This document shows positions 24,413-42,295 of a stretch of DNA of 54,794 bases, piece by piece; the stretch's first letter is position 1, and each line of letters begins with the position of its first letter. This DNA is from an archaeon (GTDB taxonomy: Archaea; B1Sed10-29; WALL01; JAGHAM01). The stretch spans positions 1-54,794 of the forward strand of contig JAIOSL010000050.1 of assembly GCA_021107635.1 (NCBI GenBank), written 5' to 3'. Below the pieces are notes generated by a model. That model searched no databases. It was given only the letters and a program-made list of their open reading frames with translations, and was not told where the DNA came from. A program made the position numbers and the translations under genes.

Positions 24413-25489
24413 TTAATGATGGAGTAATTTTTGGATTAGTGAATCAGAACGTTTTGTATATTTCACACTTTTCTTGAAATAATATTGAGCAGACTTAAAA
24501 TCATTTTTTGAAAGATTCTTTTCTAACTCATGAATAATAGTATCATGCAACTGCTTTTGTACATGTGAATCTATTTTGAACTTACATTTTTTTGATTCTG
24601 AAAGATCAAAAAAGGAAGTTGCGAGCGACTCTGCTAACACTGCTACTTCAAGCTTTTCTGTTTTAGATTTATACTTTTTTGTTTTTGTTCGATAATCTGC
24701 ATCCAAATCAACTATTTTAACTATTCCAAAAGGGTGCTCGTTATCCTTTTTATGTTCTCTAACAAAATTTTCTGGTTTAGTATCAGTATACATAATTCCA
24801 TGATTAAACAATTTCACCACAGACTTTGTAATCTGCTTAGTAACATCAACAAGTTCATCAGGATTTGAAAAACTTTCTTCTGCCAAATTTTTTGAGATAA
24901 ATCGCCTATCCGCAGCAAAACCAGAACCGATAAACTCATGCTCTTCAACTAAAACCCCTTTCATTAAAGGATGTTTGTCATTGAATTCTATGTTCATCAT
25001 TCTTCTAACCTTCTTAAATTTTGCTGCTGGAACAAGATGATAAATTTTGTCTGCGATTTCTTTAGTTTCTTTTGCAACTTCCATATGATTAGCAAGAGAC
25101 CAACCAAACAAAGGAAACTTATACACTCTAGGTTTGTCATCAACTACAGCGATAACTCTCCTTGTTGCTCCTTCTCTTGACTTATAAGCAGGTAAGATAA
25201 CTCCATGATGTTTTCCGCTTTTAACGTACTCGCTCCCATTAACATGAAAACCAGTACCTTTCAAACCAATAGCTTTAACATGCGCGCCGCCAACCTTGTC
25301 TTTAAACGCATCCAATGCCATTTTTTTCTTTGAACCACCCGCTCTTCGAATTACTGCGCGTCTATGAATGTTAAAAAGAGCTGTGGTGTCTATGAAAATC
25401 TTTCCTTTTTTATCAACTTTAGGCTTGCTAAACTTTTTTTCTTTTAATTGTTTTCTGATATGGTTAGCGTTGAAAGATTTTCTAGGCAT
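24413..25489 (-). CDS. protein-kinase-like fold protein with basic N-terminus
   Basis: Catalytic-loop-like YTDTKPENF and metal-binding KIVDLD. Confidence 0.65.
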   Translation of the reverse strand: MPRKSFNANHIRKQLKEKKFSKPKVDKKGKIFIDTTALFNIHRRAVIRRAGGSKKKMALDAFKDKVGGAHVKAIGLKGTGFHVNGSEYVKSGKHHGVILPAYKSREGATRRVIAVVDDKPRVYKFPLFGWSLANHMEVAKETKEIADKIYHLVPAAKFKKVRRMMNIEFNDKHPLMKGVLVEEHEFIGSGFAADRRFISKNLAEESFSNPDELVDVTKQITKSVVKLFNHGIMYTDTKPENFVREHKKDNEHPFGIVKIVDLDADYRTKTKKYKSKTEKLEVAVLAESLATSFFDLSESKKCKFKIDSHVQKQLHDTIIHELEKNLSKNDFKSAQYYFKKSVKYTKRSDSLIQKLLHH

Positions 25490-25541
25490 GTTTTACACCA
25501 ATAGGATATTACACAGAACGACTTAAAAAGGTTTTTGCAAA

Positions 25542-28301: not shown

Positions 28302-28350
28302 GCTGAAGATTATGAATAAGGGATATTAAAGGGATTTGCCTGGATTTTTC

Positions 28351-28785
28351 CTAGATACGACTGTGCTCTTTCAATACTTTTTTTATTAGTGACTTCATTT
28401 CGCTTGCGTTTTCAATTTCTTTCCTAAAATGTTCTCTTCTGGCTGAGAATAGTTCTTGGAATTTGTTTTCTTCAGGAAAACGCCATGGCTTGTCTAGATT
28501 AAGACGAGCATCTTCTTCTTCGTACTCCTCCATTTTTTTAAGAATTAGTGGACCTCTGGCTTCTATGATCCCAAGCCTCCTGTGTTCTATTTCCAGAGCA
28601 AGCAAAGATGCAGAGGTGTGTTCTCCTGTCTTGATTGAATGTTGGAGTTCTTCTAAATGTTTTTTGTATTCTGGCCCTCTTTTCTTTTTAGAAAGTGCTC
28701 CAAAATGATTTTCTAAAACTCTCCTGATCTTATGTTCTTCTGAACCCACTTTTAATTCAGTTCTTTTTTTCACTCTTGCGGCCAT
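28351..28785 (-). CDS. hypothetical basic helical protein
   Basis: 144-aa ORF with an upstream TATA-like element; no family recognised. Confidence 0.65.
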   Translation of the reverse strand: MAARVKKRTELKVGSEEHKIRRVLENHFGALSKKKRGPEYKKHLEELQHSIKTGEHTSASLLALEIEHRRLGIIEARGPLILKKMEEYEEEDARLNLDKPWRFPEENKFQELFSARREHFRKEIENASEMKSLIKKVLKEHSRI

Positions 28786-28824
28786 GCTATCATTAATAAT
28801 TTCTCAAGGAGAGATTAAAAAGCT

Positions 28825-29703
28825 TTAGTCTTTGATTATCAGGTAGTTGGCTGCTAGGATGAACGCTCCCCCTAGAAGGATGTTTGCCGTGAAAAGTTCC
28901 CCTAAGAATAGAGAAGCGAGTATTGCGCCTACCACCGGCTCAAGCAAGAGTATCACTCCAGACTCAGAAGCAGGTACTTTCTGCGCGCCTTTGAAGTAAG
29001 CTAAGTGTGTGACCATTCTCGCAACCACAGCGAAAAGGAATAGATATATCCAGATTTCCCAGGAAAAATCAAGAGAAAAATCAATTATGGAAGGCTCTTG
29101 AGTCAGAGTTATAGCTAGGGGATAGGACAAAGCTATGAAAACTAGGATGAAGAACGTGCACACAACCAATGTTGTCACAGGATGATATCCTTTCTTTCCG
29201 CAAATTCTTCCAAACAACACCCAGCCTGAAAGTGCAAGTCCTGCAAGAAGAGCAAAGAACAAGCCAATCGGATTGAGTGTTCCTGCTTGGAAAGGATTGA
29301 CCAGCATAACAACCCCAGCAAGAACGAGAATCACTGCCACAATTTTCTTCTTGGTTATTTTTTCTTTCAAAAATAAATTACTAAAGATGATTGTCCACAA
29401 AGGCTGAGTGTACAAGAGTAAAACAACAACAGCTACTGGAACTCCAAGAATTATTGGAATGTACTGAGATAGTACTATTATCGCACTAATCAAACCAAAA
29501 ATAAAGTATGTCTTGAGCATTTCTTTTTTCAGTTGACACTCTTTTCTTAAGAATAGAAGAGGTAAAAGGAGAAAAACAAAAAGTGAAGGAAGAACAGACA
29601 ATTGATAAAGAGATAAACCCATATCTGCAAATATTTTACCCCCAAAGACTATCAACCCAGCAAATAGACCGGAGAGTATAACAAAAAAATATTCTGGTTT
29701 CAC
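28825..29703 (-). CDS. EamA/DMT family transporter
   Basis: About 10 TM segments; LLLYTQPLW, LKEKIT, LLEPVVG motifs. Confidence 0.9.
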   Translation of the reverse strand: MKPEYFFVILSGLFAGLIVFGGKIFADMGLSLYQLSVLPSLFVFLLLPLLFLRKECQLKKEMLKTYFIFGLISAIIVLSQYIPIILGVPVAVVVLLLYTQPLWTIIFSNLFLKEKITKKKIVAVILVLAGVVMLVNPFQAGTLNPIGLFFALLAGLALSGWVLFGRICGKKGYHPVTTLVVCTFFILVFIALSYPLAITLTQEPSIIDFSLDFSWEIWIYLFLFAVVARMVTHLAYFKGAQKVPASESGVILLLEPVVGAILASLFLGELFTANILLGGAFILAANYLIIKD

Positions 29704-29796
29704 ATCAGAGATTATACGCTAAGAGGTATTATTTACTTAGTATTAGAACAATAAGAGTACTATCCCAAATACGTTTATCTCTGGAAATGTCCGGAA

Positions 29797-31353
29797 TCAC
29801 GCTTTATGAGACTTTGCTAGTTTCTTCTTAGCAAATATTACTACTCCAGACACTATCACAGCCAAGATAATCAAGGAAAACGCATTAGCTGGATTCATGA
29901 GAATTTTTGGTTCTTTTAGACTGTAAAACAAAGCTCCCCCAAGGAATAGTATCATGAAGCCTGAAACCAGCTTGAGTGCTTTCACTTTCTCCACATCAAA
30001 GCTTTTGCCTCCCATTTTAGTGGCAAACAATAGCACTATGCACGCCAGTGGCAGCACGTAGATCATGTTGTAGAGCAGTAGATAGAGGAAAGCATCGAAG
30101 AAGGGAAAAGCGCCTTCTTGTAAGTCAGTTATGTATATCAATGGAAACCCTGCAGTGCATATCATTTCATAGATGTTTACTGTTGATGCAAACACTACTG
30201 TTGCTGCTATCAGCACTGGAAGAGAATCTATGCTCATCAGTTTTTTTGCTTTTTCAGGAATGGTTTCTTTGGTGCTTGTTGGAAGAGTAAGAGAAACACC
30301 TTTTTTAAAGAAGAAATAGTCTTTAATGTTTATTACTCCAGCGATTACGGCTATCACAGCTGCTATTATGACAAGGTAAGAAAACTTTCCAGCATCTAGA
30401 ATGAAGCCCGAAAAGATGTAGAGCGCGAGCATGGATAAGAGGTATATCAGGCCAGAGATGAAAACGAACACTCCTCCGACAATCAATATTTTTTTCCTTG
30501 AACGAGCCATCATTAGTATACTCAACAAAAACGTCAGGATGAAAAAGGCACAAGGATTGAAACCGTCTGCAAGACCTATCAAAAGAGTAGTAATAACAAG
30601 AGGATTATTTTCAGTGTCTATCTCTATTTTCCCGATGAATGGCCAGTCAAGAAGAGTTATAACATCAGTTTTTATAGTGTCTCCTCCAGAGGCATTCATT
30701 GGAACAAACATACTTTCGTTGAATTCAAGCAGCCAAGAATCTTCTATCTTCACGGCATTCTCAAAAACTATCTCGCCATAAGCTATTGGAGCTGGTTCTG
30801 GAGTAACGCTCTCTATTTTTATCCCAGATAATGTCAGGTTTTCCAAAGCGTCGGTAATATTCTCTGAGAGGAGTGCCTTCCGTAGAATATCACTTGAAAC
30901 AGTTCCTTCACCCGTTCGAACCAATAACCGTCCCTTTGACCACACTTTTAGAGGAGCCCCTTCTAGTGCGTTTAAGTCTAGTTCATCAAAGCTGGAATTT
31001 CCGTTGAGCAAAGCGCACTCACGGCTTCCCCGTTTTATTTGTTCTTCTCCGTTGAACACTTCCAAGCGCCCAGCAAACACAGTGTTATTAACAAACAGCC
31101 GTGGAACAGATGCTTCGCCACCATACACATTTGAGTACTGTGTAAGCAAATTATAGTTTTCATCACCCCAGCTGTCGAATGAGTATTCTATTATGACTAG
31201 ATGAGGATATACTCTTGGCCATTGACCAAGAGCCAGTGGATCTGTGACCTTGCAATTGTTACAGAATGTAGCAGTAAAGTAAACAGCACATGAGTTGTTA
31301 GTCTCAGAAGCATAGACTAAAGACAAGTTTAAGACTAAGAGAAGTACAATCAA
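29797..31353 (-). CDS. exported thioredoxin-like domain fused to a CcdA/DsbD-type membrane domain
   Basis: YFTATFCNNC (CxxC); membrane GLADGFNPCAF and YEMICTAGFP; the start may lie further upstream (CTG 31377). Confidence 0.8.
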   Translation of the reverse strand: MIVLLLVLNLSLVYASETNNSCAVYFTATFCNNCKVTDPLALGQWPRVYPHLVIIEYSFDSWGDENYNLLTQYSNVYGGEASVPRLFVNNTVFAGRLEVFNGEEQIKRGSRECALLNGNSSFDELDLNALEGAPLKVWSKGRLLVRTGEGTVSSDILRKALLSENITDALENLTLSGIKIESVTPEPAPIAYGEIVFENAVKIEDSWLLEFNESMFVPMNASGGDTIKTDVITLLDWPFIGKIEIDTENNPLVITTLLIGLADGFNPCAFFILTFLLSILMMARSRKKILIVGGVFVFISGLIYLLSMLALYIFSGFILDAGKFSYLVIIAAVIAVIAGVINIKDYFFFKKGVSLTLPTSTKETIPEKAKKLMSIDSLPVLIAATVVFASTVNIYEMICTAGFPLIYITDLQEGAFPFFDAFLYLLLYNMIYVLPLACIVLLFATKMGGKSFDVEKVKALKLVSGFMILFLGGALFYSLKEPKILMNPANAFSLIILAVIVSGVVIFAKKKLAKSHKA

Positions 31354-31547
31354 AAGGGAAAAATTTATTCTTGACAGATTAACACCTCATTGAATGGTAT
31401 ATTATTGGAACAACATAGCTTAAACAATTAGGTTTTTGAATACCTATTCAAGAAGAAGGTGTCTCACACTGAACCTGCCAATTGAAGTCAAACAGCTCCA
31501 AAAGAGCAAACAAGCAGTTTTTAAACCATAAAAAACAAAATAACTGC

Positions 31548-32117
31548 ATGAACGTCGAGAAAGCAGAAAAAGAACTCATGAAAATACACGAACTCAGAGA
31601 CGAACTACTCGATAAGCGGAGGCTATTAGTCCGAAAGTGCGCGATGGGAATAAGAGCAGTGCATATAGAAGACTATAAGCTTGCACACCAAAAGCTGAAA
31701 GAAGCAAAAAAAGAGTTTGGAGAACTGAGAGAAAAAACCAAAGAAACTCCTCGCATGCAATACCTGCTCACCATATGCTGCCAAGAGATAGTTGAGCTTG
31801 AAGTCTTACTGGGAGTGCTAGAAAAAGGAAAGCTGCCAGACGTGGATGCTCCACCAGATGCCTATTTGACAGGTGTCCTCGACGCGCTAGGCGAGCTGAA
31901 AAGAACTGCCATAGGGCTGCTAATGAAAGGAGAATACGACAAAGCTATGCAACTCTACAAACAAATGGAAGAGATCTACTATTCCATGGAAGGTCTTACC
32001 TTCCCAAACTCGCTTGTGGAAGGATTCAAGCGCAAACAAGACGTTATGAAGAAAGTTCTCGAACGCTTGTATGAAACGCTTGCAGAAGCAAAAATGCGCG
32101 GAAGCGGCTCTAAATAA
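31548..32117 (+). CDS. translin/TRAX (C3PO) family protein
   Basis: RDELL..R, QEIVE, AYLTGVLDALGELKR, FKRKQD; ATG 31548 about 25 nt after a TTTTAAA box. Confidence 0.88.
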   Translation: MNVEKAEKELMKIHELRDELLDKRRLLVRKCAMGIRAVHIEDYKLAHQKLKEAKKEFGELREKTKETPRMQYLLTICCQEIVELEVLLGVLEKGKLPDVDAPPDAYLTGVLDALGELKRTAIGLLMKGEYDKAMQLYKQMEEIYYSMEGLTFPNSLVEGFKRKQDVMKKVLERLYETLAEAKMRGSGSK

Positions 32118-32165
32118 ATGTTTACTCCTCTTTTTTTATTTAACTACCTAAAAATATTTATAAAT

Positions 32166-32207
32166 GTTTTTTGCAAAAAAACTGCTGTGAGAATTAAAAT
32201 TTTTGCA
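32166..32207 (+). repeat. 42-bp element, copy A
   Basis: GTTTTTTGCAAAAA-aactgc-TGTGAGAATTAA-aa-TTTTTGCA; 34/42 identical to 34697-34738. Confidence 0.85.
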
Positions 32208-32537
32208 AATATAACTATATAGTCTAGCATATACATTCAAGTAGTATATACTCTAGTTTATATAATCTAATTATATATACTCTATTAGTATGTTTGTAGT
32301 ATATGCAGTATAGTTGATATTTTTTATGTTTTTTTGACAAAAACACTAGAATTGAAGTAAAAACTAAAATAAAGGCTAAATTGGCGTTTTTAGATGTAAA
32401 AAAGGGTGTTTTTTGGTTTATTTTGTTGTTTCATTTGTTTATTTGGTTTATTTTTGGAGAAAGAGTATGTTTTAGAGGTGTTTGAGAAGTGTGTTTTTTC
32501 TTGTTTTTAGAGGTTTTTTACCAAGGGTTGCTTGTAC

Positions 32538-33023
32538 TCAAACCCCTAACGCGATGAGTGATGTGACAAGAAGCTCTTCTTCAGAGGTTTTTAGGTAGTT
32601 GTAGTATCCAGTAAATCCTTTTCCTGTTCTTGAGAAAAGAGGAAAGTGAAAACCAGTAAGTTGGAATGCGCCTATTCTAGTTCCATCTTTGTATATATCA
32701 TAATCTCTGTTGAGTGGATTGATTTTTTCTTTGATGTAGAAGTGTGTTCCGTCTCCATCGCTGATTTTGATAGTGTTTGAGACGCCTAAGAGAGTTTTAA
32801 CATAACCAATTTTCTTATTTCCTTTGTAGATTTCTGCACGTCTATTAATGTGTCCGGTTCTATGAATTTTGTAGATTTTTGCGTTTGGTAGGCTGTTCAT
32901 CCAGCGTACGCCGATTTCTTTCTCATAGATGTTTCTAGTTACAGTGATTTTTTCTGTTTTTCCTTGTCGTTTTACGGACGCGGTTGCATCACCCAAGCTA
33001 CTGGTAATCTGAAATTCTACCAT
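32538..33023 (-). CDS. hypothetical beta-rich protein, possibly LURP-one/tubby-like
   Basis: Repeated short beta-hairpins (YKIH, EIYKGNKKIG, DIYKDGTRIG) and a C-terminal hydrophobic helix. Confidence 0.5.
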   Translation of the reverse strand: MVEFQITSSLGDATASVKRQGKTEKITVTRNIYEKEIGVRWMNSLPNAKIYKIHRTGHINRRAEIYKGNKKIGYVKTLLGVSNTIKISDGDGTHFYIKEKINPLNRDYDIYKDGTRIGAFQLTGFHFPLFSRTGKGFTGYYNYLKTSEEELLVTSLIALGV

Positions 33024-33029
33024 TCTAAT

Positions 33030-33386
33030 TCACGCTTTCCATCGTTTGATGAAGCTTCCCCAGATGTCGCTCATTTCGGTACAGCGGTTGGTGAATTGCT
33101 CGGAGAGAATCCATTCGCTGTCTACTTTTGTTATGAAACCAGCGTCTCTGAGCTTGGAGACTGTAGTATAGTATTCCTGGTGTGTTGCTCCTAACTCTTT
33201 CTGGAGTTGTTCCCATTCTTTGGATGGTATTCTTTTTCTCTCAACTATCATATAAATAAACTTCTGTGCCAGCTTGGCGTTTTCTGGTTTGCGATAGTAT
33301 AAGTTCTCGAGTATTGTTAACAGATCAGGAGTACGTTCTCGAGATTTTATTCGTAAAGTAGTTTCGTATTTTGCCATTTTACTCAC
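33030..33386 (-). CDS. putative winged-helix DNA-binding protein
   Basis: EWEQLQKELGATHQEYYTTVSKLRDAGFITKVD, an HTH plus wing pattern. Confidence 0.65.
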   Translation of the reverse strand: MSKMAKYETTLRIKSRERTPDLLTILENLYYRKPENAKLAQKFIYMIVERKRIPSKEWEQLQKELGATHQEYYTTVSKLRDAGFITKVDSEWILSEQFTNRCTEMSDIWGSFIKRWKA

Positions 33387-33972
33387 CGTTTTCTAAGGTT
33401 TCTTGAAATGAGTGCCTCAGGTTTTTCACTATTTTGCTTGAAATCTTGGGATCCATTTTTGATACCAAGTCGCTTGCAATGAAGTGGGTCATCAGGTCCT
33501 TGTGCTTAAGTTCTAGTCTTTTCATTTCTTGATCTAGTTTTTCATGGAAGAAGACATAGTGTTTTTCCATGTGTTTGATTGCTTGGGCTGCTCTTTGAGG
33601 GTCTTTGATCGTTTGTGCTTTTTGAAGGTATTCTTTGTAGACTGTTTTGTAGATTTTTTTGCTCTCTTTTAGTTGTTTATATCTTTTAACTGGATGATCT
33701 GATAGGGTGCTTAAGTGTATTTGGAGCCGTTCCATTCCCCCATGAAACCCGCCTAACTTTTGTTTTAAAATGTCTTCCTTTTTTTCCAATCCTAAATTAT
33801 AGTGGTGTTTAGCATAGTCCTTTTGCATTTTAGCTTGGGTGACGATTCCTGCTTCTTCTGGCACTCCGGGTTGCGGCACCCAGATTATGTTTTTTGGCTT
33901 TAGTTTTTGAGGAACTGGTTTTCTTATTGGGCGTCGTTCAAACGGTTTTTTTGCCTTTTTTGGCCTTGGCAT
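33379..33972 (-). CDS. hypothetical basic helical protein
   Basis: 197 aa, MPRPKK start, GGAGGA RBS. Confidence 0.7.
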   Translation of the reverse strand: MPRPKKAKKPFERRPIRKPVPQKLKPKNIIWVPQPGVPEEAGIVTQAKMQKDYAKHHYNLGLEKKEDILKQKLGGFHGGMERLQIHLSTLSDHPVKRYKQLKESKKIYKTVYKEYLQKAQTIKDPQRAAQAIKHMEKHYVFFHEKLDQEMKRLELKHKDLMTHFIASDLVSKMDPKISSKIVKNLRHSFQETLENGE

Positions 33973-34264
33973 GTTTTCTCCTCCTTTTCTAGTACCTCTT
34001 GGGTTTTGTCGGATTGTCCCTTACTCGTCTTTTTATTCTCTTAACCGGTACCATCTCACCTAATGCTTTAGCAAACTTCGTATTTAAACATTAACTATAG
34101 TCATTCTATATCTCATATAATAACCGATAAAAACGTGCATTCCTAGACGCGCATTAATCTAGTTCTTATCTTAGTAGAGGGGTTTTCCCCTCGGACACCC
34201 TAGTTTGGAAGCGAAAAGCATTCTCCAGAAACACTTGGAGTCATTATTAGAGGTTATATCTTAA

Positions 34265-34633
34265 TCATTCTACCCTTAATGTTGCCACAGCTCTTTCAAT
34301 CCCAGCTACTTTATCAAATCGCTGATCATGCTCTCTTATGGTCACATCCAGATCATATAATCCTGATTTGAGACCATGCTTGCCATAAATATTGAACACG
34401 GCTGTCTTGGTTTCTTGAGAAGACACATAACCAACGCGTATTCTTCTTTCTCCCATTAGACCTGAACGGTCAAATCCAAACTTGGATGGCGCTTTTACTG
34501 TTATAGAATAGCCTCTAGCCTCATCAGTCTTGTTGGTTACAGCTATGTGAAGATTCACCGGGTCTTTTTGTCCAACAATCATTCTAAGTGGAACAAAATT
34601 AGTTCGTATGTACATATTAGAATCATCGTACAT
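34265..34633 (-). CDS. small all-beta (Ig-like) protein without a signal peptide
   Basis: Alternating hydrophobic strands, VTN, GLYDLDVTIRE, C-terminal LRVE. Confidence 0.6.
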   Translation of the reverse strand: MYDDSNMYIRTNFVPLRMIVGQKDPVNLHIAVTNKTDEARGYSITVKAPSKFGFDRSGLMGERRIRVGYVSSQETKTAVFNIYGKHGLKSGLYDLDVTIREHDQRFDKVAGIERAVATLRVE

Positions 34634-34696
34634 GAAAAATACCTCACTATTCTTAGGCTTTCAAGGGATAAATAACTACCGGATAGTATTACTAAA

Positions 34697-34738
34697 GTTT
34701 TTTGCAAAAATGGGGGTGTGAGAGTTAAGTTTTTTGCA
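34697..34738 (+). repeat. 42-bp element, copy B
   Basis: GTTTTTTGCAAAAA-tggggg-TGTGAGAGTTAA-gt-TTTTTGCA; overlaps the stop codon of 34725-35009. Confidence 0.85.
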
Positions 34739-35009
34739 CAGTTGAAATTTTTTCTATCCTGCGAAGCACTGTTTCAAATTCACGGGCCAAATCTTCTCCC
34801 TTTTCTGTTAGCTTGACTATTTTAATTCTACCCTCTCTATCAAAGACCACTAGACCAGCACTAGCAAACTCATCTAGAACATTAACCATATGTGCGTAAG
34901 TACAGTCAACATCCTTAGCTAAAAGAGACGCATACCAAGTACGGTCCTTCTCAGAAAGCGCTACTAGAGCCCTTACAGGCTTTTCATTGATAAAAAAATT
35001 TGATTGCAT
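34725..35009 (-). CDS. MarR-like winged-helix protein
   Basis: YASLLAKDVDCTYAHMVNVLDEFASAGLVVFDREGRIKIVKLTEKG; GGAGG RBS. Confidence 0.85.
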   Translation of the reverse strand: MQSNFFINEKPVRALVALSEKDRTWYASLLAKDVDCTYAHMVNVLDEFASAGLVVFDREGRIKIVKLTEKGEDLAREFETVLRRIEKISTVQKT

Positions 35010-35162
35010 ATACTCATCCTCCAGTTTAAATATAGATTTTTTAATTAATCTATTCTAGTTTATATAATTAACTGTATATATCCAAGTTATTGAAGTCAAA
35101 AAAAGATTTAGAAAAGAATATTTAAGAAAGTATATTTTATAGTTGATAGTGAGAAGTGAAAA

Positions 35163-35571
35163 AAGTGAGAGTTGAGAAAGAAAGAACTAAAAAATGAAAA
35201 AAGGAGTAGAGTGGATAAGAAAGAGTAGGGACAAAGTAGGAAAGTAGTAAAAAGTGAGAATTAAGCAAACCAGAAACATGAGGATATGAGATAATGAAAG
35301 TTAGAACCGGAGAGGGTTAAGATAATAGAGAAAAAGTGAGAGTTACACTAAAAACAAGGAAAAAAGCAGAAAAAACTATAGATCCTTAAACAAGTGAGAA
35401 TTAGAACATATAACAGTAAATAACTAACTAAAGTAGAAAAAAGTGAGAGTTGGCCCCCGTGAGTATCTTTCTAACAACCCTACATTAATGCACCATTAAA
35501 CACCAGCTAACAACACGTAACATTACGTAAAAAAAGTGAGAGTTGACGTAATATTACGTAAAGTGAGAGTT
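35163..35571 (+). repeat. array of seven co-oriented AAGTGAGARTT 11-mers in a long intergenic region
   Basis: Copies start at 35163, 35252, 35334, 35392, 35441, 35534 and 35561. Confidence 0.9.
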
Positions 35572-35611
35572 AGAGCAAAGCCATATAAACTTGTTATGTG
35601 TAAGTGCTTCA

Positions 35612-36328
35612 ATGGGATTGATTGACTGGCTCACAAGAAAGAAAAGTGAGAAAAAGTCAGAATTAAAAAAACAACTTGAGAAGAAACAAGTAAGTGAGAG
35701 TACAGTCACAATCCAAAAAAGTGAGATCCTACCAATAGAAACACCAGATGTCTACTCTCCAACAGTTGAACACCCATTATTGACAATACAAGACAGGATA
35801 TCTAAATTAGAGGAAATCTACCGCAGCCTCAACGAAAAAATAGATAAAAAGGTAGCAACACGTGAAGATACTGATGAACTCAAGGTTTTGGTCGGTCAAA
35901 CCCTAGATAAAAGTAATGATATAATAGGTAATATTACCAATCTTGACCGGAAACTCGCTCTATTAGACGGAAAGAAAGAAGAGTTGACACGTAAAATAGA
36001 CACGTCAACTTACGAGTTGACACAAGATTTAAGCAACCTTCAAAATGTAGAACGCTCTATAAAGCTCTTAGAAGCAGACAAAAAGATACTTGAGGTATTA
36101 GGAGACAAAGAACTTAGCACAATAGAACTCTCAGAAAAATTAAGTTACACAAGACAGTATCTTTGGGGCAGACTAAAGCAGATGCAGGCGGATGGACTAG
36201 TAACGAGCTTTAAAAGCGGAAGACAAACCAAATACATAAAAAATAAAGATAAGCTAAATGACATGACAAATAACACGTCAAATGACATACCACTTGACGT
36301 ATTAGATTACATGTCACATGACGCGTAA
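35612..36328 (+). CDS. coiled-coil protein with C-terminal ArsR-like winged helix
   Basis: Heptad region, then KILEVLGDKELSTIELSEKLSYTRQYLWGRLKQMQADGLVTSFKSGRQTKY; ATG 35612 about 25 nt after CATATAAA. Confidence 0.85.
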   Translation: MGLIDWLTRKKSEKKSELKKQLEKKQVSESTVTIQKSEILPIETPDVYSPTVEHPLLTIQDRISKLEEIYRSLNEKIDKKVATREDTDELKVLVGQTLDKSNDIIGNITNLDRKLALLDGKKEELTRKIDTSTYELTQDLSNLQNVERSIKLLEADKKILEVLGDKELSTIELSEKLSYTRQYLWGRLKQMQADGLVTSFKSGRQTKYIKNKDKLNDMTNNTSNDIPLDVLDYMSHDA

Positions 36329-36388
36329 ACTAGATATTACGTTACATTACGTAAAATATACGCAATACGTGGAAAACAACTAAAACCC

Positions 36389-36412
36389 AGGACCCCCCAC
36401 AGTTCCGGTATT
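36389..36412 (+). repeat. 24-bp inverted repeat, left copy
   Basis: AGGACCCCCCACAGTTCCGGTATT; 21/24 match to the reverse complement of 37953-37976. Confidence 0.85.
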
Positions 36413-36538
36413 CATATACCTGATGTTTCCCGCTAAAAAAAGGAGAGAAAGCACCAAACAAAGACGAAAAGGTTTATATACTCCTTCTGCGTTATACTTC
36501 CTTATTAGCTAGAATGCTAATAGGAACGGGTGAAACCA

Positions 36539-36856
36539 ATGATTCACATTTCAGAGCTCTATGGTATAGATATATACGGAGATGACGGAAAATATGTTGG
36601 CAAAGTAAATGATGTTATACTCAATCTTGAAAAAGGAAGAGTAGTAAGAATCACAACCGAGCCACTCAGGTTTGTTTCCAAGGTTCAAGCCAAGAGCGTC
36701 TTAAAAGAAAAAAGTATACTTTACAAGAATGTTAGAACAGTAGGAGATATCCTAATAGTAGGTAGGGGAAGGAATACATCACCCTCTGATGAAGAAGTTA
36801 AAGTAGAACTACAAAAAAGACGCATGGGAAGAAGCCTTTTGGGGAGAACAAGGTAA
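36539..36856 (+). CDS. PRC-barrel domain protein (CdpB-like)
   Basis: ISELYGIDIYGDDGKYVGKVNDVILNLEKG ... VRTVGDILIV; ATG after GGTGA. Confidence 0.9.
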   Translation: MIHISELYGIDIYGDDGKYVGKVNDVILNLEKGRVVRITTEPLRFVSKVQAKSVLKEKSILYKNVRTVGDILIVGRGRNTSPSDEEVKVELQKRRMGRSLLGRTR

Positions 36857-37024
36857 CCTCCCCAAACATATGAGTCTAAATAACCATATTGGGAGAGGGA
36901 AAGCGGCAATTTATTTCTGATAGTTTATTAAGATAAAGTAGTGAGAACAAGAAAAAAATAAGACGCGTTAAGTACCCTATTTTTTTGGCTTAAATATATA
37001 TATTAGTAATTCAAATAGAATAAT

Positions 37025-37660
37025 ATGCGGTTTAACAAAGAAAAAGCAAAAAAAGAAACAATTAAGCATTGTAGACATCAAATACCCAGATCATCAATTA
37101 GTATAGCAAGACAACTAAAAAAGAAAGTTGCTGGTTTCTATCCAAATTCACCGCCAAAAAAAATAACACCATTAATGAAAAAGAACATTTTAGGTCCCTT
37201 AGAAGAAGACGGTTTTTTAATAAAGTATACACCTGAAAAAACTTCATGGAAAAAAGCAAGATTATTACTAACACTATATCATGAAAAAGGAAAACCAAAA
37301 CCTAGAAAAATCACAGAATTATACCAAACAAATTTTCTATATTTAGAAGACACAGTATTTCCATTGATAAAAAATCTACCAAAACCAGAACCTGAATTAA
37401 ATTTAGATTTAGTTGTTCTACTATCCAAATTCAAAAAAACAGAAACATACACTTGGGACTTACTGAACTTACTCTTAGCAGCAAGTAAAGAAGAAGATCA
37501 GTTGAGGATATATCTCTACAAACTACCAATAGACTACAATAAAATAGAAATCTTAGAAAGAATATTAGAATATGGAAAAGAATACACCCACATACAATTC
37601 CCATTCAAACCAGACCAAGAAAATGCTAAAAATTTCTTACGTAAAATAACTGAATTTTAA
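37025..37660 (+). CDS. hypothetical protein, possible N-terminal winged helix
   Basis: RSSISIARQL ... ILGPLEEDGFLIKY; weak similarity only. Confidence 0.55.
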   Translation: MRFNKEKAKKETIKHCRHQIPRSSISIARQLKKKVAGFYPNSPPKKITPLMKKNILGPLEEDGFLIKYTPEKTSWKKARLLLTLYHEKGKPKPRKITELYQTNFLYLEDTVFPLIKNLPKPEPELNLDLVVLLSKFKKTETYTWDLLNLLLAASKEEDQLRIYLYKLPIDYNKIEILERILEYGKEYTHIQFPFKPDQENAKNFLRKITEF

Positions 37661-37729
37661 TACGTAAACTAAACAAAACACTAATAAATACTATAATAAT
37701 AAATAATTGAACATTGTTTAATATATAAT

Positions 37730-37948
37730 ATGTCAAGTGATGAGACTTTACGTATCATTCGTGATAATCCAAATGGTATATGGATACGTGAAATCGCTAG
37801 AAAAGCCCATATTAGTCCTGCAAGTGTATGTAACTACTTATATGGATACAGAGACAACAAAGGGAAGTTTATCAAGCCTAAAATCAAAAAATATGTTCAA
37901 ATTGAGCATATTGGAAATAGTTCTATTACAATCGTTCGACCAAGATAA
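37730..37948 (+). CDS. small HTH protein
   Basis: LRIIRDNPNGIWIREIARKAHISPASVCNYL. Confidence 0.8.
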   Translation: MSSDETLRIIRDNPNGIWIREIARKAHISPASVCNYLYGYRDNKGKFIKPKIKKYVQIEHIGNSSITIVRPR

Positions 37949-37952
37949 TGTT

Positions 37953-37976
37953 AATACCGGAAGTAGGGGGGGTCCT
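37953..37976 (-). repeat. 24-bp inverted repeat, right copy
   Basis: Plus strand AATACCGGAAGTAGGGGGGGTCCT. Confidence 0.85.
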
Positions 37977-37978
37977 AG

Positions 37979-38269
37979 ATGAAAGATTGTCTATGGGAGC
38001 TTTTACAGCGTATCCCAAAGGGAAAGGTCACTACATATAGTGAGTTAGCGAAAGTGTTAGGTACCTCTCCTAGAGTAATAGGTAGTCTACTTCGTTCTAA
38101 TAAAGATTTAGATAGTATTCCTTGTTATAAAGTAGTTATGTCAAATGGTCAATTGGGTGGTTATTCTTTAGGTGTTACTGAGAAGGTTAAGAGATTACAT
38201 AAAGATGGAGTTTACGTAAACAAAGGTAAAATAGCTAGTTTTGATACTGTTTTGTTTAGCTATCAGTAG
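37979..38269 (+). CDS. single-domain O6-alkylguanine DNA alkyltransferase (MGMT family)
   Basis: IPKGKVTTYSELA, SPRVIG, IPCYKVV (PCHR-like), LGGYSLG. Confidence 0.9.
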   Translation: MKDCLWELLQRIPKGKVTTYSELAKVLGTSPRVIGSLLRSNKDLDSIPCYKVVMSNGQLGGYSLGVTEKVKRLHKDGVYVNKGKIASFDTVLFSYQ

Positions 38270-38341
38270 CGGGGGTTGGATTTGAACCAACGACCTTCGG
38301 GTTATGAGCCCGACGAGCACTCCTAGCTACTCCACCCCGCT
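38267..38341 (-). tRNA. tRNA-Met(CAT), initiator type
   Basis: AGCGGGG/CCCCGCT acceptor stem (A1:U72), anticodon arm TCGGG-CTCATAA-CCCGA with three G:C pairs, T-arm GTTGG-TTCAAAT-CCAAC; CCA not encoded. Confidence 0.96.
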
Positions 38342-38377: not shown

Positions 38378-39613
38378 TTAAATAGCTTTTTCCCTTAATC
38401 CTAATAGAATCAAGAAAGGAGAGACTAGAACAGAAACAAGTACTACTGCAATGACACTTGAGTAAACAAACGCACCTACGTTACCACCAAGAATATTACC
38501 TCCTCCTTTTGCAACAGCAGCCAGAATTACTAACCCAACACCCCCTCTAGGAACCATTGCTAATCCGATAATAGCAGAAGATTTTAGTGGTATCTTACCA
38601 AGTAATGCTCCTATGAAGCTTCCTAAAAAGTTTCCGAAGAGGGCAACAGCAATCAATATTATCATTACCGGACTCCAAAATGGCAGAGAAAAGCCACCTT
38701 CTGCAGTAGATGTAACTGCAAGCATTCCCATCCATGCAAAAAAGATAGGAACAAAAACACCATATGAAAGAGAAGCGAGCTTATCTGAAAAATTTCTTTC
38801 TCTCAATGGACTTCTTGAAACTATAATTCCAGCAAGAAACGCACCGATAACACCATGTAAATTAAATGCACCTACTAAAACTGCAAGAGCTAGCATTACT
38901 ACAAAAGCTAAAGTAAATTGAGCTTCTTCAACTTCTAAACTAGCAGTATACTTAACAATTGCTGGTAAAATGTTAATTCCTACAACAAACAAGACAAACA
39001 AGATTACTGCTACTGAAACTATAGAAAGCAATGCTGGTACCATAGCATCTATTCCTCCAGGCAGCAAAGCAGAGAGAGCAGTAAAAACAGCCAAACCAAA
39101 CAAAGCATCTATAACTCCTGTACTCAACACTACTTTCCCAACTTGCGTGTTAAGTTTTCCTGCTTTAATTAGAACTTTCATGCTAGTAACAACAGAACTC
39201 ACTGATAAACAAGCAACTAGAGTTGCTCCACCAACAAAACCAATCGCATGGTCAAAATTTATTGGATCTATCACATGAGCATTCACTGCAACGAGAGCAA
39301 TAGCAATTGCAGGAATAATAAAACCAAGAATAGCTGAAGCATACGTAGCAGTCTTATTTTCAAGTAAATGTGTAGTATTAAGTTCACGCATTCCTGCAAC
39401 AAAAAGCAGTAATATCGCTCCTAACTGACCAAAAATTGCAATGTTTGCACTTGGTTCTACTAACTGATGAAGTCCAATTAGGTTACCCCCAAAAACCAAA
39501 AACATTCCAGCAACTAAATAACCCAATACGCTAGGAAAGTTTAATCTTTCTGCTATTTCTCCAAAAATCTTGGCTAGTATAAGTAATAAAACCAACGTCA
39601 GCAGAAATTCCAT
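38378..39613 (-). CDS. cation:proton antiporter (CPA2/NhaP-like)
   Basis: About 12 TM segments; PSVLGYLVAG, LLLFVAG, TGVIDALFG, GAFLAG, FVPIFF, MVPRGGVG. Confidence 0.9.
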   Translation of the reverse strand: MEFLLTLVLLLILAKIFGEIAERLNFPSVLGYLVAGMFLVFGGNLIGLHQLVEPSANIAIFGQLGAILLLFVAGMRELNTTHLLENKTATYASAILGFIIPAIAIALVAVNAHVIDPINFDHAIGFVGGATLVACLSVSSVVTSMKVLIKAGKLNTQVGKVVLSTGVIDALFGLAVFTALSALLPGGIDAMVPALLSIVSVAVILFVLFVVGINILPAIVKYTASLEVEEAQFTLAFVVMLALAVLVGAFNLHGVIGAFLAGIIVSRSPLRERNFSDKLASLSYGVFVPIFFAWMGMLAVTSTAEGGFSLPFWSPVMIILIAVALFGNFLGSFIGALLGKIPLKSSAIIGLAMVPRGGVGLVILAAVAKGGGNILGGNVGAFVYSSVIAVVLVSVLVSPFLILLGLREKAI

Positions 39614-39700
39614 TAACGGAATAACTCAACTCATTAATAAAAGGTTTTGGCTCCATACCCACTTCTACTAATTTAATAGGTAAACACCTTAAACATATCA

Positions 39701-40429
39701 ATGCCACGAAAACGCCAGTTAATTAAAAAAAGCAAGACAGCAAAAGGGCGCCTGCACAAACAAGGAGAGAAATATAATGGCAATCGTCATCTGAACAACT
39801 TGGAAATATACAAGCACCTCACTCCCAAATCCAAACGGTGTGTCGAAGCAATGCTGCACAAAGTTGTTGAAAATTGGGTGCTCAATGAAAGAGCAACAAC
39901 GCTTGCAGAGATACGTGCCATAGCAAAAACCAGTGCTCTTTGCTACCCAACAGAAATAAAAAAACAATATCCTCACCTCAAAAACATATATCCTGAAACG
40001 TTTCTCAGAGAAATATTACCCTACCTTCCAGTGTCTGCAGGACGATATTTTGTTAAGAAAAGAGGGCACTGGAAAAAACCAAACATTATCGACCAAACAA
40101 TGCACAAAAACATACAGAATGCATTTCCTTTAACCAAAGGGAGATATTCTAAAAAGGATACTGCTGTTTCAACACCTCAAGTAACCGAACTCTTGAACAA
40201 GAGTGAGCATGCATGTAAGTTGGAAGTCTTATTCTTTCCTTCTTCCACAGCCAGGAAAGTCTCCACCACCGGCTTCCTGAAAAAACTGGGAAAAATCAAT
40301 GATAACCGTCTTAAAGAATGGGGATTGATTCCTTCCAAAAAAAACCAAAAAGCAGTCAAACACATTTCTAAATGGGAAATAAGTAAAGTAATAAAAGTTA
40401 TCAAGAAAGCAGATGTAAAAACTATCTAA
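39701..40429 (+). CDS. orphan paralog family member 1
   Basis: ILPYLP, MHKN, EW and KWE motifs shared with 41636 and 51676. Confidence 0.75.
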   Translation: MPRKRQLIKKSKTAKGRLHKQGEKYNGNRHLNNLEIYKHLTPKSKRCVEAMLHKVVENWVLNERATTLAEIRAIAKTSALCYPTEIKKQYPHLKNIYPETFLREILPYLPVSAGRYFVKKRGHWKKPNIIDQTMHKNIQNAFPLTKGRYSKKDTAVSTPQVTELLNKSEHACKLEVLFFPSSTARKVSTTGFLKKLGKINDNRLKEWGLIPSKKNQKAVKHISKWEISKVIKVIKKADVKTI

Positions 40430-40448
40430 AAAAATAGGCCATATACTC

Positions 40449-41159
40449 TTAATCTTTTTTCTTTTCAACACTTGCAAAATAAGCTTCTTTTGGCAAACGA
40501 TGCAATACTATCATATAAAAATAGTTTCTTAAAAATTTCCAGAGAGTTTGCAAATAACCTTTCTTATGGAACCGTCTTGGTGAGGAAGCAACCCAATTAT
40601 CTGGAATATAAACACATTTTCCTTCTTTTTTGATTCTGTTAGAAATTTCAGTGTCTTCCAAAAAACTCATCTCTTCATTAAAACCACCAATTTTATCAAA
40701 AACACTTTTTCTGAAAGCACAACTTTGTCCACTAAACTGATAAATATGAAAAAACGAGGTAAACCTATAACCCCAATCCTGATTAAGTTTGAATAAAACT
40801 TTGTCAATAAGTGTACCTTCTAATGGTCTCACAGGGCCACCAGAAGCAACCACTTTCGGATCCTCAAAAACTTTAGCAAACTTTTCAAGCCAATGAGGAT
40901 TAACCACAGTATCTGCATCAATGAAAACAAGAACGTCTCCCTTCGCTAATTTTGAGCCTTTGTTGCGCGCTGGTCCTGCTCCTTGACTTTCATTATCTCT
41001 TACAGCATTACCATACTCTTTAGCAATATCATACGTTCTGTCATCCCCACCTATAATTATGATTATCTCATAATCATCATAAAACTTAGATCTAATCGAT
41101 TCAAGGCAGGCTTTGATGTTGTTTTCTTCGTTATATGCTGGGATTATAACAGAAATCAA
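40449..41159 (-). CDS. glycosyltransferase family 2
   Basis: SVIIPAYNEE, GAGPARNKG, VFIDAD, GGFNE, EDTE. Confidence 0.93.
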   Translation of the reverse strand: MISVIIPAYNEENNIKACLESIRSKFYDDYEIIIIIGGDDRTYDIAKEYGNAVRDNESQGAGPARNKGSKLAKGDVLVFIDADTVVNPHWLEKFAKVFEDPKVVASGGPVRPLEGTLIDKVLFKLNQDWGYRFTSFFHIYQFSGQSCAFRKSVFDKIGGFNEEMSFLEDTEISNRIKKEGKCVYIPDNWVASSPRRFHKKGYLQTLWKFLRNYFYMIVLHRLPKEAYFASVEKKKD

Positions 41160-41162
41160 AAG

Positions 41163-41360
41163 TCATTCCTTCTCTTCTTCTGTTTTTAGCCTTGTGATGT
41201 ATCCTGCGACAATATTCCTATCGGTTTTGGAATAGTCAAACAATCCTGTTTCTCTGACTTTTACTTTGTTTTCTTCATACTTGTCAGTAAACTTTTCAGG
41301 GTATCTATTGTACAGTTCTTGGGCCTTGTTTTTCAAAATACTTGTCATTTGTTTTCCCAT
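41163..41360 (-). CDS. rps17e: 30S ribosomal protein S17e
   Basis: AQELYNRYPEKFTDKYEENK ... RNIVAGYITR; ATG 41360 after GGAGG. Confidence 0.88.
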   Translation of the reverse strand: MGKQMTSILKNKAQELYNRYPEKFTDKYEENKVKVRETGLFDYSKTDRNIVAGYITRLKTEEEKE

Positions 41361-41362
41361 AA

Positions 41363-41530
41363 TCATTCCTCCAAGATTGTAATAGGCACTACATCTTTTT
41401 CAATTTCTTCTAAAGCCAAGTCTATTGGTGTTGCTTCTTTGCTAGGTTTTACTAGTGGAGGAGCACCCATTGCAAGCTGTAGAGCGCGTGCGCCTAGAAT
41501 TCTTGCTTTTTCATATTTTGTGTATATCAT
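41363..41530 (-). CDS. rpoK: DNA-directed RNA polymerase subunit K (Rpo6), 55 aa
   Basis: Manual translation [28 protein letters not shown]...[18 protein letters not shown]; absent from the ORF track. Confidence 0.95.
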
Positions 41531-41635
41531 CTAATCTACCTCTAGACCAAAGAATAACGTAATATTCTAACCACTGGTATTTATAAAACCTTTCTGTGCC
41601 GTTCACTTATTAACTCTAAATTTATAAATATCTTC

Positions 41636-42295
41636 ATGCGTAAGAAGTCAAACTACAAAGGACACGAATATCTAAACAAGCACCCAACGTACCAAAGATT
41701 AGAATCCGCAGGCAAACAAAAAGTAGAAAAAGGCATAAAATATGTCCTCAAAGAATGGCATGCAGGAAAAGCGGTAAAAACATCTGAACTACGCAAATAT
41801 CTCAATGACACAGCAGTCAGGTATAAACCACCTAACCAAGAACCTATCCAAAACCGAAAGGTTACTTCCATCTTAAAAGAAATTCTTCCTTACATTCCTA
41901 TCAGAACAGGAAAACTTTTCACTAGACAGTCGAACGGCACTCCACCAATAACCGATTCTGCAATGCACAAAAACCTAAGAAACGGATTCACAGGATTGAA
42001 TTCCCCTATCCTAATAGCAAGCGGTCAATCCCGAAACAAAACAATAAAAAAACTCAACCAAGAAGCTCCTTCCACAAACCAAGAAGTCATATTCTTTCCC
42101 TGTCATTCAATAAATGAAGTATCAACCCAAGAATTTCTTGGCAAACTCTCTCCCTTTTTCAAAGAACGTAAACACGAATGGTTTCTAGGCAAAAAACCAG
42201 TTGAACCCAACCATTACTTCTATCTTGCAAAATGGGAAAAAGAACAACTAGAAAAAATGAAAAACCCAAAGACCAAAAAACCCCACCATCCATAA
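41636..42295 (+). CDS. orphan paralog family member 2
   Basis: ILPYIP, MHKN, EVIFFP, EW, KWE. Confidence 0.75.
   Translation: MRKKSNYKGHEYLNKHPTYQRLESAGKQKVEKGIKYVLKEWHAGKAVKTSELRKYLNDTAVRYKPPNQEPIQNRKVTSILKEILPYIPIRTGKLFTRQSNGTPPITDSAMHKNLRNGFTGLNSPILIASGQSRNKTIKKLNQEAPSTNQEVIFFPCHSINEVSTQEFLGKLSPFFKERKHEWFLGKKPVEPNHYFYLAKWEKEQLEKMKNPKTKKPHHP

Follow-up and report, generated by a model that had tools for sequence, protein, structure and literature searches.

A one-way repeat array among winged-helix genes in Diapherotrites: a candidate replication-origin or replichore-boundary module

The DNA analysed here (the window) is an entire archaeal contig of 54,794 nucleotides (C36, 54.8 kb; GenBank JAIOSL010000050.1). 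It belongs to assembly GCA_021107635.1 (G000, the host genome), which comprises 1.2 Mb in 60 contigs, is 88% complete and has a GC content of 39%. The public names of homologous sequences assign the host to the class Diapherotrites (Iainarchaeia-like in GTDB) of the DPANN archaea. Within about 6 kb, the window displays a one-way array of short direct repeats, an extremely AT-rich tract, two inverted boxes reminiscent of origin recognition boxes (ORBs) and several genes for small proteins, many of them of the winged helix-turn-helix (wHTH) type (Table 1). An initial annotation, made from the letters of the window, had proposed a chromosome-organising or initiation locus here, possibly a non-Orc origin. 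The general idea is retained, on account of a strand-skew switch, the AT maximum, the ORB-like boxes and a Cdc6-like neighbour; the "non-Orc" part is not. The locus is classed as a candidate replication-origin or replichore-boundary module, without firm membership in a single known family. The reading preferred here, a replication-origin region of unusual format with wHTH partners encoded at the locus itself, is given about an even chance of being correct.

All genomes used for comparison were metagenome-assembled sequences. The closest relative contributed a near-identical locus (L050) on a 1.17-Mb contig of the European Nucleotide Archive (ERZ10759799), with the same gene layout.

Table 1. 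Positions of genes and DNA elements at the locus (numbering of the window)
Feature	Position	Strand	Remarks
AT-rich (76%) intergenic tract	32120..32537	.	29/14-bp tandem repeats at 32216-32284
50-nt direct repeat, first copy	32158-32207	.	T/A-run palindrome and one GTGAGAATT copy
161-aa orphan protein	32538..33023	-	operon partner of the 118-aa wHTH protein; order-wide (tblastn synteny)
118-aa winged-helix protein	33030..33386	-	order-restricted; relatives carry PF27297 (AF_0843)
197-aa basic protein	33379..33972	-	seen in the closest relative (L050) only
122-aa Ig-like (macroglobulin-domain-like) beta-sandwich protein	34265..34633	-	conserved class-wide
50-nt direct repeat, second copy	34689..34738	+	overlaps stop codon of the 94-aa wHTH gene
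94-aa MarR-like winged-helix protein wH94, AF_1382-like	34725..35009	-	class-wide, always divergent from the array
AT tract resembling a DNA unwinding element (DUE)	35010..35157	.	most AT-rich 120 bp of the genome; TATA-like boxes in both directions
One-way array of AAAAGTGAGA(G/A)TT	35158..35575	+	7 exact copies and degenerate copies; purine-rich spacers
Palindromic operator-like elements ATTACGTAA / TTACGTAA	35511..35561	.	interleaved with the last two repeats
238-aa coiled-coil wHTH protein	35612..36328	+	MGxxxWLxKK start, coiled coil, C-terminal ArsR-type wHTH
Second ATTACGTWA pair	36334..36356	+	directly past stop codon of the 238-aa gene
ORB-like box AGGACCCCCC-ACAG-TTCCGGTATTC	36389..36417	+	29-nt inverted repeat with 37948-37976
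108-aa PRC-barrel protein	36530..36856	+	PF05239, 1.3e-9; class-wide beside the array
211-aa orphan protein	37025..37660	+	conserved class-wide
72-aa probable HTH protein	37730..37948	+	conserved GIWIRELAR..VSPATICNYLYGY
Second ORB-like box, inverted to the first	37948..37976	-	partner of the 29-nt inverted repeat
96-aa protein, methylguanine-methyltransferase DNA-binding domain only	37979..38269	+	syntenic with the locus
tRNA-Met	38266..38341	-	next to the locus in G015 too

Repeat array and AT-rich tract

The array was located between two divergent winged-helix genes, those of wH94 and of the 238-residue coiled-coil protein, and adjoined the most AT-rich 120 bp of the genome. Its unit was the 13-bp AAAAGTGAGAGTT, with the full form (A)AAAAGTGAGA(G/A)TT and the consensus (A)AAAAGTGAGAGTT(C). 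The pattern AGTGAGARTT occurred seven times (0.33 expected), always on the + strand (35164-35571), and seven of its 11 copies in the host genome were contained in these 410 bp, the remaining four lying elsewhere. Degenerate copies were encountered from 35147 onwards and reached into the first 120 nt of the 238-residue gene, where in-frame copies at 35644, 35692 and 35719 were translated as K/V-S-E. Spacings in the window were irregular (89, 82, 58, 49, 93 and 27 bp), without evident helical phasing. A CRISPR was ruled out (the repeat is only 13 nt long and irregularly spaced), as was a Shine-Dalgarno or general promoter motif, since the motif is nearly absent from the remaining genome.

AT content was ranked in 120-bp windows over the whole 1.2-Mb assembly. 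The window starting at 35025 (85% AT) ranked first, those at 37617 and 32254 ranked second (tied) and sixth, and the locus holds three of the six most AT-rich windows of the genome. AT-rich tracts and several distinct repeat families, both listed in the initial annotation, were borne out, the counts of several families exceeding chance. Three 14-bp AT repeats were contained in the tract beside the array (35098-35137), and this tract remained AT-rich even in GC-rich relatives.

Relatives of the same order displayed the motif in the gap between wH94 and the 238-residue gene (about 340-900 bp) at every locus that spanned it, with two to eight strict copies each. Arrays comprised five to nine copies at irregular spacings of 27-131 bp, spanned 0.2-0.9 kb and ran up to 370 nt into the coding region. 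All 47 motif copies scored across nine loci lay on the same strand, while the spacers were unrelated in sequence between loci and differed even in GC content. Almost every genome of the order that possessed the exact 11/12-mer had most or all of its copies at the locus; reversed-pattern controls gave zero to three scattered matches. K-S-E tripeptides of the 238-residue orthologues were encoded by AAAAGTGAG in 12 of 13 cases, compared with a background of 7.5% (determined in the host genome only), and, as judged by these codons, selection on the motif copies within this coding region acts at the nucleotide level. In the GC-rich relative G005 (C13, 102.4-103.3 kb; L017), the array spacers contained near-perfect GC palindromes, GGGGGGCCGCC-N-GGCGGCCCCCC, which were not present in AT-rich genomes.

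In eight of nine loci, 151-153 bp separated the start codon of wH94 from the first repeat. About 25-35 nt ahead of this repeat there was a conserved TATA-like box, flanked upstream by purine-rich sequence, and a degenerate motif copy stood between this box and the first full repeat. Runs of T are terminator signals in archaea; over 3.5 kb of arrays, the array strand contained no T run of five or more and 57 such A runs, and it was 63-80% purine. This strand asymmetry and the TATA-like box leave room for a transcribed RNA or R-loop component that may belong to the array. An array acting altogether as RNA would be a purine-rich leader or non-coding RNA, transcribed rightward from the TATA-like box, whose repeated AAAAGUGAGAGUU sites titrate an RNA-binding protein in the manner of CsrB or form an R-loop that helps to open the AT tract. 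The single orientation of all 47 copies, the lack of T runs, the purine content, the position of the TATA-like box and the in-frame continuation of motif copies into the mRNA would all suit such an element. Yet a second conserved TATA box is found about 25 nt ahead of the start codon of the 238-residue gene, so its mRNA would be leaderless and begin past the array. An Rfam scan at a permissive threshold, moreover, returned tRNA-Met only and the array matched no known RNA family; no candidate RNA-binding protein was evident; no RNA structure is to be expected, because the spacers are not conserved; and the richness in purines could merely reflect decayed motif copies. As a full explanation, the RNA is therefore held improbable.

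Purely transcriptional control is accorded a similarly small, if marginally better, chance. The array and the palindromes would here be operators or upstream activating sites by which the divergent wHTH genes control themselves and the operon of the PRC-barrel and 211-residue proteins. That they stand near a replichore boundary would be a matter of inherited synteny and mechanistically irrelevant. The array does lie between divergent promoters, its first copy keeps a fixed distance to wH94 with a degenerate copy after the TATA-like box, and the neighbouring genes are all of small wHTH regulator types. The palindromes ATTACGTAA and TTACGTAA are situated at the promoter of the coiled-coil gene, directly upstream of its TATA box; ATTACGTWA occurred five times (0.61 expected), four of the copies bracketing this gene with two at the promoter and two past the stop codon. 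The extent of the array and its reach into coding sequence, however, are far beyond the needs of an operator, and the coincidence with a skew switch in four genomes, the AT maximum and the Cdc6-like neighbour are left unexplained.

Conservation within the order and across the class

The whole gene set recurred together with the array across the order. In the loci of nine relatives, the genes of the 122-, 118-, 161- and 94-residue proteins were found on one side of the array and those of the 238-residue, PRC-barrel, 211-residue, 72-residue and methyltransferase-domain proteins on the other, with minor rearrangements. Orthologues of the 238-residue protein were present in 10 of the 13 genomes of the order; outside it, none was detected at E<1e-3 except for one marginal match (8.8e-6) in a genome of another phylum.

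A smaller core, consisting of the wH94 gene, the array, the PRC-barrel protein and the 211-residue protein, was class-wide. Of the 31 genomes of the class, 22 encoded wH94, with identities of 38-59%. In other orders, 11 of the 12 loci examined displayed the layout of wH94, PRC barrel and 211-residue protein, and about eight of them had at least two motif copies upstream of wH94, in divergent arrangement. The methyltransferase-domain gene was on the same side as the core in several of them, with the Ig-like and translin-like genes opposite. Synteny had been named in the initial annotation as a means of checking its proposal, and genes and repeats proved to be co-conserved across the order and, for the core, across the class. 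A lack of such co-conservation, by which the annotation would have been refuted, was not observed.

In some eight of 11 assemblies of relatives, the contig broke off no more than about 5 kb from the locus, and the array itself was cut in G006 and G007. The segment between the 118- and 122-residue genes varied in length and content, and the locus looks like an assembly-breaking hot spot of variation. In Ca. Forterrea, a complete Diapherotrite genome, variation is likewise reported to be concentrated near the origin (PMC5905446).

This breakage and the variable segment, together with an iteron-like layout of direct repeats beside an AT tract and wHTH genes, might suggest that the locus is what remains of a plasmid or virus replicon after integration (iterons with a Rep-like wHTH protein), devoid of any chromosomal role. 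This is considered very improbable: the locus is single-copy, occupies the same syntenic place across the whole class and is not anomalous in composition except for its AT tracts. Twenty open reading frames (ORFs) between 24413 and 42295 were scanned with Pfam (ten at 31482-37948, six at 24413-31353 and 37979-38269, and four at 38378-42295), and none of them contained a ParA, ParM, TubZ, integrase or transposase domain. The orc1/cdc6 model TIGR02928 had no match on the window contig. The absence of orc1/cdc6, ParA, integrase and transposase reported in the initial annotation thus holds for these ORFs and, as regards orc1/cdc6, for the contig.

Array partners and the variable slot

wH94 matched AF_1382 (PDB 2qvo) at E 8e-9 in a profile comparison. 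It was the only DNA-binding protein that co-occurred with the array class-wide, the coiled-coil wHTH protein doing so in this order. Being class-wide and always divergent from the array, wH94 is the best candidate for its constant partner.

The coiled-coil protein started with the amphipathic MGxxxWLxKK segment, followed by a K/E/S-rich linker, and its C-terminal wHTH domain was recognised by HTH_24 (E 2.4e-5) and by PDB 2oqg (E 1.7e-6). With its amphipathic N-terminus and its PRC-barrel neighbour, it is suggested to tether DNA to the membrane or divisome in the fashion of Noc or RacA. The ATTACGTAA palindromes at its promoter resemble ordinary dimer operators of the autoregulatory kind.

The slot occupied by this gene was variable. 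Families f10 and f12 carried a shorter protein of the type MG...F/K-S-E/wHTH, and in G015 the slot was empty, the array standing directly ahead of the PRC-barrel gene. In families f5, f6, f8 and f9, which represent sister orders, the slot was filled by an AAA+ protein of 370-505 residues. This protein carried ..NPF..FVG.. in its N-terminal part, had a Walker A motif and a C-terminal wHTH domain, and matched AAA_22 down to 3e-13. The best PDB match of its family profile was Cdc6 (7jgr_G, 2e-8), followed by RuvB, RFC, human Cdc6 and Sulfolobus Orc1-1. No orthologue of this protein was found in the host genome, in G015 or in those contigs of G005 and G003 that were searched. As their wHTH domains aligned weakly (hhalign probability 11%), the two slot proteins are not put forward as homologues. 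An array with a Cdc6-like neighbour is, on the strength of these profile matches, a classic pairing of replicator and initiator.

ORB-like boxes

The 29-nt inverted repeat of the locus had the general form AGGACCCCCC-N4-TTCCGGTATTC, and its two copies were the sole long ORB-like boxes of the host genome. Its reverse complement, GAATACCGGAA-N4-GGGGGGTCC, comprises half a dyad and a G-string. It is similar to the right half of the ORB known from euryarchaea, with shorter spacing and without the full dyad; the ORB consensus is GTTCCAGTGGAAAC-AAA----GGGGG (PMC1868953). The long form CCCCC-N3-6-TTCCGGTA occurred one to three times per genome in nine of 13 genomes, almost always at this locus, and controls gave zero matches. 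A short form, AATACCGGAAG, was found directly upstream of the TATA box of orc1 in three of seven genomes. G005 displayed a third box (C14:54693-54710; L053) adjoining the 3' end of a tRNA gene; in the window, the second box is about 300 nt from tRNA-Met.

Strand skew and placement of orc1

Replication skew was separated from coding-strand skew by taking GC skew at fourfold-degenerate sites for each gene strand. A switch from positive to negative values was detected at the array in four relatives (G005, G019, G015 and G020) from at least three orders. In G005 (C13, 168 kb), both gene strands displayed values of +0.15 to +0.26 until about 100 kb and of -0.08 to -0.24 beyond; the cumulative skew peaked at 100.5-104.6 kb and the array occupied 102.4-103.3 kb. 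It was the only clear switch in the 325 kb sampled. G019, from another order, had its cumulative maximum at about 217-219 kb of C1 and its array gap at 216.0-216.96 kb, this gap being the longest and most AT-rich in 139 kb. G015 (two contigs, 569 kb) showed its sharpest change, from about +0.12 to about -0.15, near 20 kb of C2, with the array at 21.9-22.3 kb; in the opposite region, skew was roughly zero over some 150 kb, a diffuse transition compared with the sharp one at the array. A weaker shift was found in G020 (C1) at 205-210 kb, the array being at about 205.4 kb. The locus is very probably a true replichore boundary.

Two additional switches on the same contig of G019 (L072-L075) lay about 50 kb apart. 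One was a maximum near 112-120 kb; the other, near 157-167 kb, was a minimum that stands about midway between the two maxima. Two origins would be expected to give this arrangement, and so would an inversion of 57 kb. The bias of coding strands changed sign within the order: at fourfold sites, they were C- and A-rich in the host genome (GC skew about -0.5, AT skew about +0.5) and G-rich in G005, G015 and G003.

The host genome possessed two Orc1/Cdc6 genes, both on other contigs (TIGR02928 matched C21 and C47, with a weak, sub-threshold match on C46). In seven relatives (G003, G005, G007, G009, G015, G019 and G020), 17-40 kb lay between the array and orc1, which was invariably found on the side of wH94. 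In view of these two results, the non-Orc origin of the initial annotation is not supported in the form in which it was stated. In G015, orc1 was the only Orc1/Cdc6 gene found and lay about 205 kb from the opposite skew extreme. None of the orc1/cdc6 genes and orthologues displayed origin-like flanks, their upstream gaps being 30-250 bp long and free of skew switches; the second Cdc6 gene of G005 (C5) was likewise without a switch.

Further genes and elements

Four of the five helix-turn-helix (HTH) genes listed in the initial annotation were supported (33030, 34725, 35612 and 37730). The fifth, at 37025, had been called weak there, and no HTH was detectable in the 211-residue protein at the sequence level. 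The 72-residue protein at 37730 matched HTH_24 only weakly (0.029) but was conserved. The 118-residue protein was predicted by AlphaFold2 (AF2) to adopt a winged-helix fold (mean predicted local distance difference test, pLDDT, of 84), and its model weakly resembled CadC, IclR, MarR and AspA, the centromere protein of pNOB8; no other protein of the cluster was as well conserved (61-88% identity), and it was confined to the order. The 161- and 211-residue proteins had no relatives in Pfam, NCBIfam or PDB, even with profiles. Since it was present in the closest relative only, the 197-residue protein is placed outside the conserved core.

The 122-residue protein, already annotated as Ig-like, was modelled by AF2 as a seven-strand beta-sandwich (pLDDT 92), similar to complement macroglobulin (MG) domains with a template modelling (TM) score of about 0.7. 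It is probably cytoplasmic, as no hydrophobic N-terminal stretch was visible by eye. The PRC-barrel assignment was equally upheld by its Pfam match; the family includes the division proteins CdpB and CdvA, and its members are division proteins in haloarchaea, yet have roles outside division too.

The 96-residue protein, syntenic with the locus class-wide, reads IPCYKVV at the active-site position, where the canonical O6-methylguanine methyltransferase has PCHR, and may be an alkyltransferase-like (ATL) damage sensor. A translin-family protein (31482-32117; PF01997, 2e-11) was syntenic with the locus in several orders; the NCBIfam name of its relatives, "haloacid dehalogenase superfamily protein" (PRK14562), looks like a misnomer. 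The ORFs at 39701-40429 and 41636-42295 had no Pfam match, and a relative of their products and of that of 51676-52305 was found at 19156-19812 of L050. The second 50-nt direct repeat, like the first, carried a T/A-run palindrome, and it contained an outlying motif copy, GTGAGAGTT, at 34718, with an equivalent outlying copy in L050.

Origin or terminus

An origin fits best because six features are combined at or around the locus: a repeat cluster at the AT maximum, a replichore boundary, linkage to orc1, ORB-like boxes, a Cdc6-like neighbour in sister orders, and the sharp switch at the array of G015 set against a diffuse one opposite. In the mechanism that we infer, the AT tract of about 150 bp (35010-35157) would act as the unwinding element, and at least nine copies of AAAAGTGAGAGTT (35147-35720) would form an assembly platform for the locally encoded winged-helix proteins. 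wH94 would be the constant partner of the array throughout the class and the slot protein an exchangeable one, a coiled-coil wHTH protein in this order and a Cdc6-like AAA+-wHTH protein in sister orders. Orc1 would bind the two inverted ORB-like boxes, initiation would follow, and the coiled-coil and PRC-barrel proteins would serve as a tether or link between the origin and the membrane or the division machinery.

Several observations weigh against an origin. The array switch is a cumulative-skew maximum, the sign of a terminus under the rule of bacteria and thermophiles. Proven haloarchaeal origins display the same inverted polarity (PMC1868953); Ca. Forterrea, however, is described as having a "typical" skew pattern with its origin beside a cdc6 gene (PMC5905446). 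No switch was visible in the host genome, as its skew is dominated by the coding-strand effect with A/C-rich third positions, or in G003, which lacked replication skew. The annotators' caveat, that A/C-rich genes on both sides argue against a strong replichore switch, is correct for the host genome, where the coding-strand effect accounts for it, and does not decide the question; skew, whose whole-genome profile they had named as a check, switched at the array in the four relatives above and in neither of these two genomes. G019 has its two further switches, near 112 and 160 kb. The orientation of genes, tRNAs and rRNAs in G015 neither diverged nor switched at the array and cannot, for that reason, separate an origin from a terminus. 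The array consensus lacks the TTCC...GAA core of archaeal ORBs and mini-ORBs, and its copies all point one way from one side of the AT tract, whereas ORBs flank the DUE in inverted orientation. The ORB-like boxes share with ORBs only GGAA and the G-string, at a shorter spacing, and the copy by the tRNA gene of G005 is remote from any skew switch. Finally, a transcribed element would suit the purine-rich array strand too.

The polarity, the main obstacle to an origin, is a reason to consider a replication terminus or division-coupling site, which we regard as unlikely, though it has a real chance. The array would then be a polar, clustered binding platform comparable to the Ter/RTP fork barrier or to MatP-matS, and the coiled-coil wHTH and PRC-barrel proteins would connect the DNA replicated last with the membrane or divisome. 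All four genomes have terminus-type polarity under the standard rule; in G005, the top strand left of the array is G-rich and T-rich at fourfold sites and 59% of the genes left of the switch point towards it; the one-way orientation fits a polar barrier; the haloarchaeal PRC-barrel proteins act in division; and Ca. Forterrea is said to follow the typical pattern. This is opposed by the linkage of orc1, including the sole Orc gene of G015 and its distance to the opposite skew extreme, by the Cdc6-like gene adjoining the array in sister orders, and by the genome AT maximum and the ORB-like boxes, which are features of origins. The sharp switch at the array of G015 and the diffuse one opposite are the reverse of what is expected of an archaeon that lacks a fork trap, unless the array is itself the trap.

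Returning to an origin, a more specific version is possible but rather doubtful: a new format in which a strictly one-way, non-ORB array of 13-bp repeats, specific to the class and located at a DUE, is read by a MarR-like wHTH protein and an exchangeable partner (absent from G015), is coupled to the membrane or division through the PRC-barrel neighbour and might be helped by R-loop opening.

We know of no DPANN replication origin, terminus or segregation system that has been defined experimentally, and a literature search on DPANN origins yielded solely the skew-based origin prediction for Ca. Forterrea (PMC5905446). The locus provides a concrete, conserved, single-copy DNA element with candidate binding proteins, situated at a replichore boundary in several genomes. 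If it is an origin, origin recognition across an archaeal class would proceed through a non-ORB one-way repeat, the place beside the origin could be taken interchangeably by the gene of a Cdc6-like ATPase or of a wHTH protein resembling a coiled-coil membrane tether, and inverted skew polarity would not be confined to haloarchaea. If it is a terminus, it would be, to our knowledge, the first candidate for a site-specific archaeal terminus or division-coupling site. Either way, it can serve as an anchor for orienting and checking DPANN assemblies and for peak-to-trough estimates of growth rate from metagenomes.

Comparison with known systems

The locus was compared with archaeal origins, iterons, parC/tubC, RacA-ram, Noc-NBS and MatP/matS; in its proposed mode of action it is most similar to an archaeal oriC or to an iteron origin. 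Methanothermobacter possesses arrays of 13-bp mini-ORBs. Like the Orc1/Cdc6-ORB origins of Pyrococcus (oriC) and Sulfolobus (oriC1 and oriC2), the locus combines an AT-rich, putative unwinding tract with repeats of about 13 bp in a long intergenic gap that is unique in the genome, coincides with a skew switch and has a Cdc6-like gene adjacent to it in sister orders. Its boxes with a dyad part and a G-string are inverted and enclose genes, at a distance of about 1.5 kb from each other; Pyrococcus likewise has ORB clusters 1.5 kb apart that flank a gene (PMC1904270). Unlike in canonical Orc1-ORB origins, however, these two boxes flank 1.5 kb of genes and not the DUE, orc1 is 17-40 kb away and not adjacent, and the flanking genes encode small wHTH, PRC-barrel and Ig-like proteins. 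The skew polarity is inverted with respect to thermophilic archaea and corresponds to that of haloarchaea.

Iteron origins of plasmids (RepA/RepE/pi class) resemble the locus in their direct repeats of one orientation abutting an AT tract with short AT repeats, and in a neighbouring winged-helix gene that probably controls itself through palindromic operators distinct from the repeats. They differ in that the locus is chromosomal and class-wide and its spacing of 27-131 bp irregular, that of iterons being regular and helically phased; no Rep-like protein with two winged-helix domains was recognised at the locus by profile comparison. Sulfolobus oriC3 with WhiP shares a non-ORB repeat and a winged-helix protein encoded beside it, but no Cdt1/WhiP-like protein was detected here at the sequence level and the partner slot varies between orders.

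The centromeres parC (with ParR) and tubC (with TubR) have in common with the locus a cluster of short direct repeats located upstream of and running into an operon that is headed by the gene of a small DNA-binding adaptor. In contrast to them, the locus has no ParA, ParM or TubZ motor gene among the 20 ORFs scanned, lacks a ParB or ribbon-helix-helix fold, and has irregularly spaced repeats. The amphipathic N-terminal helix of the coiled-coil wHTH protein recalls Noc-NBS, and an origin-proximal position would be shared with parS and RacA-ram sites. MatP/matS offers a coiled-coil DNA-binding protein near division-related functions at a replichore boundary. The matS sites, however, are palindromic 13-mers dispersed over hundreds of kb, whereas those of the array are asymmetric and clustered in less than 1 kb, and the proteins of the locus, with wHTH domains of MarR and ArsR type, are unrelated to MatP.

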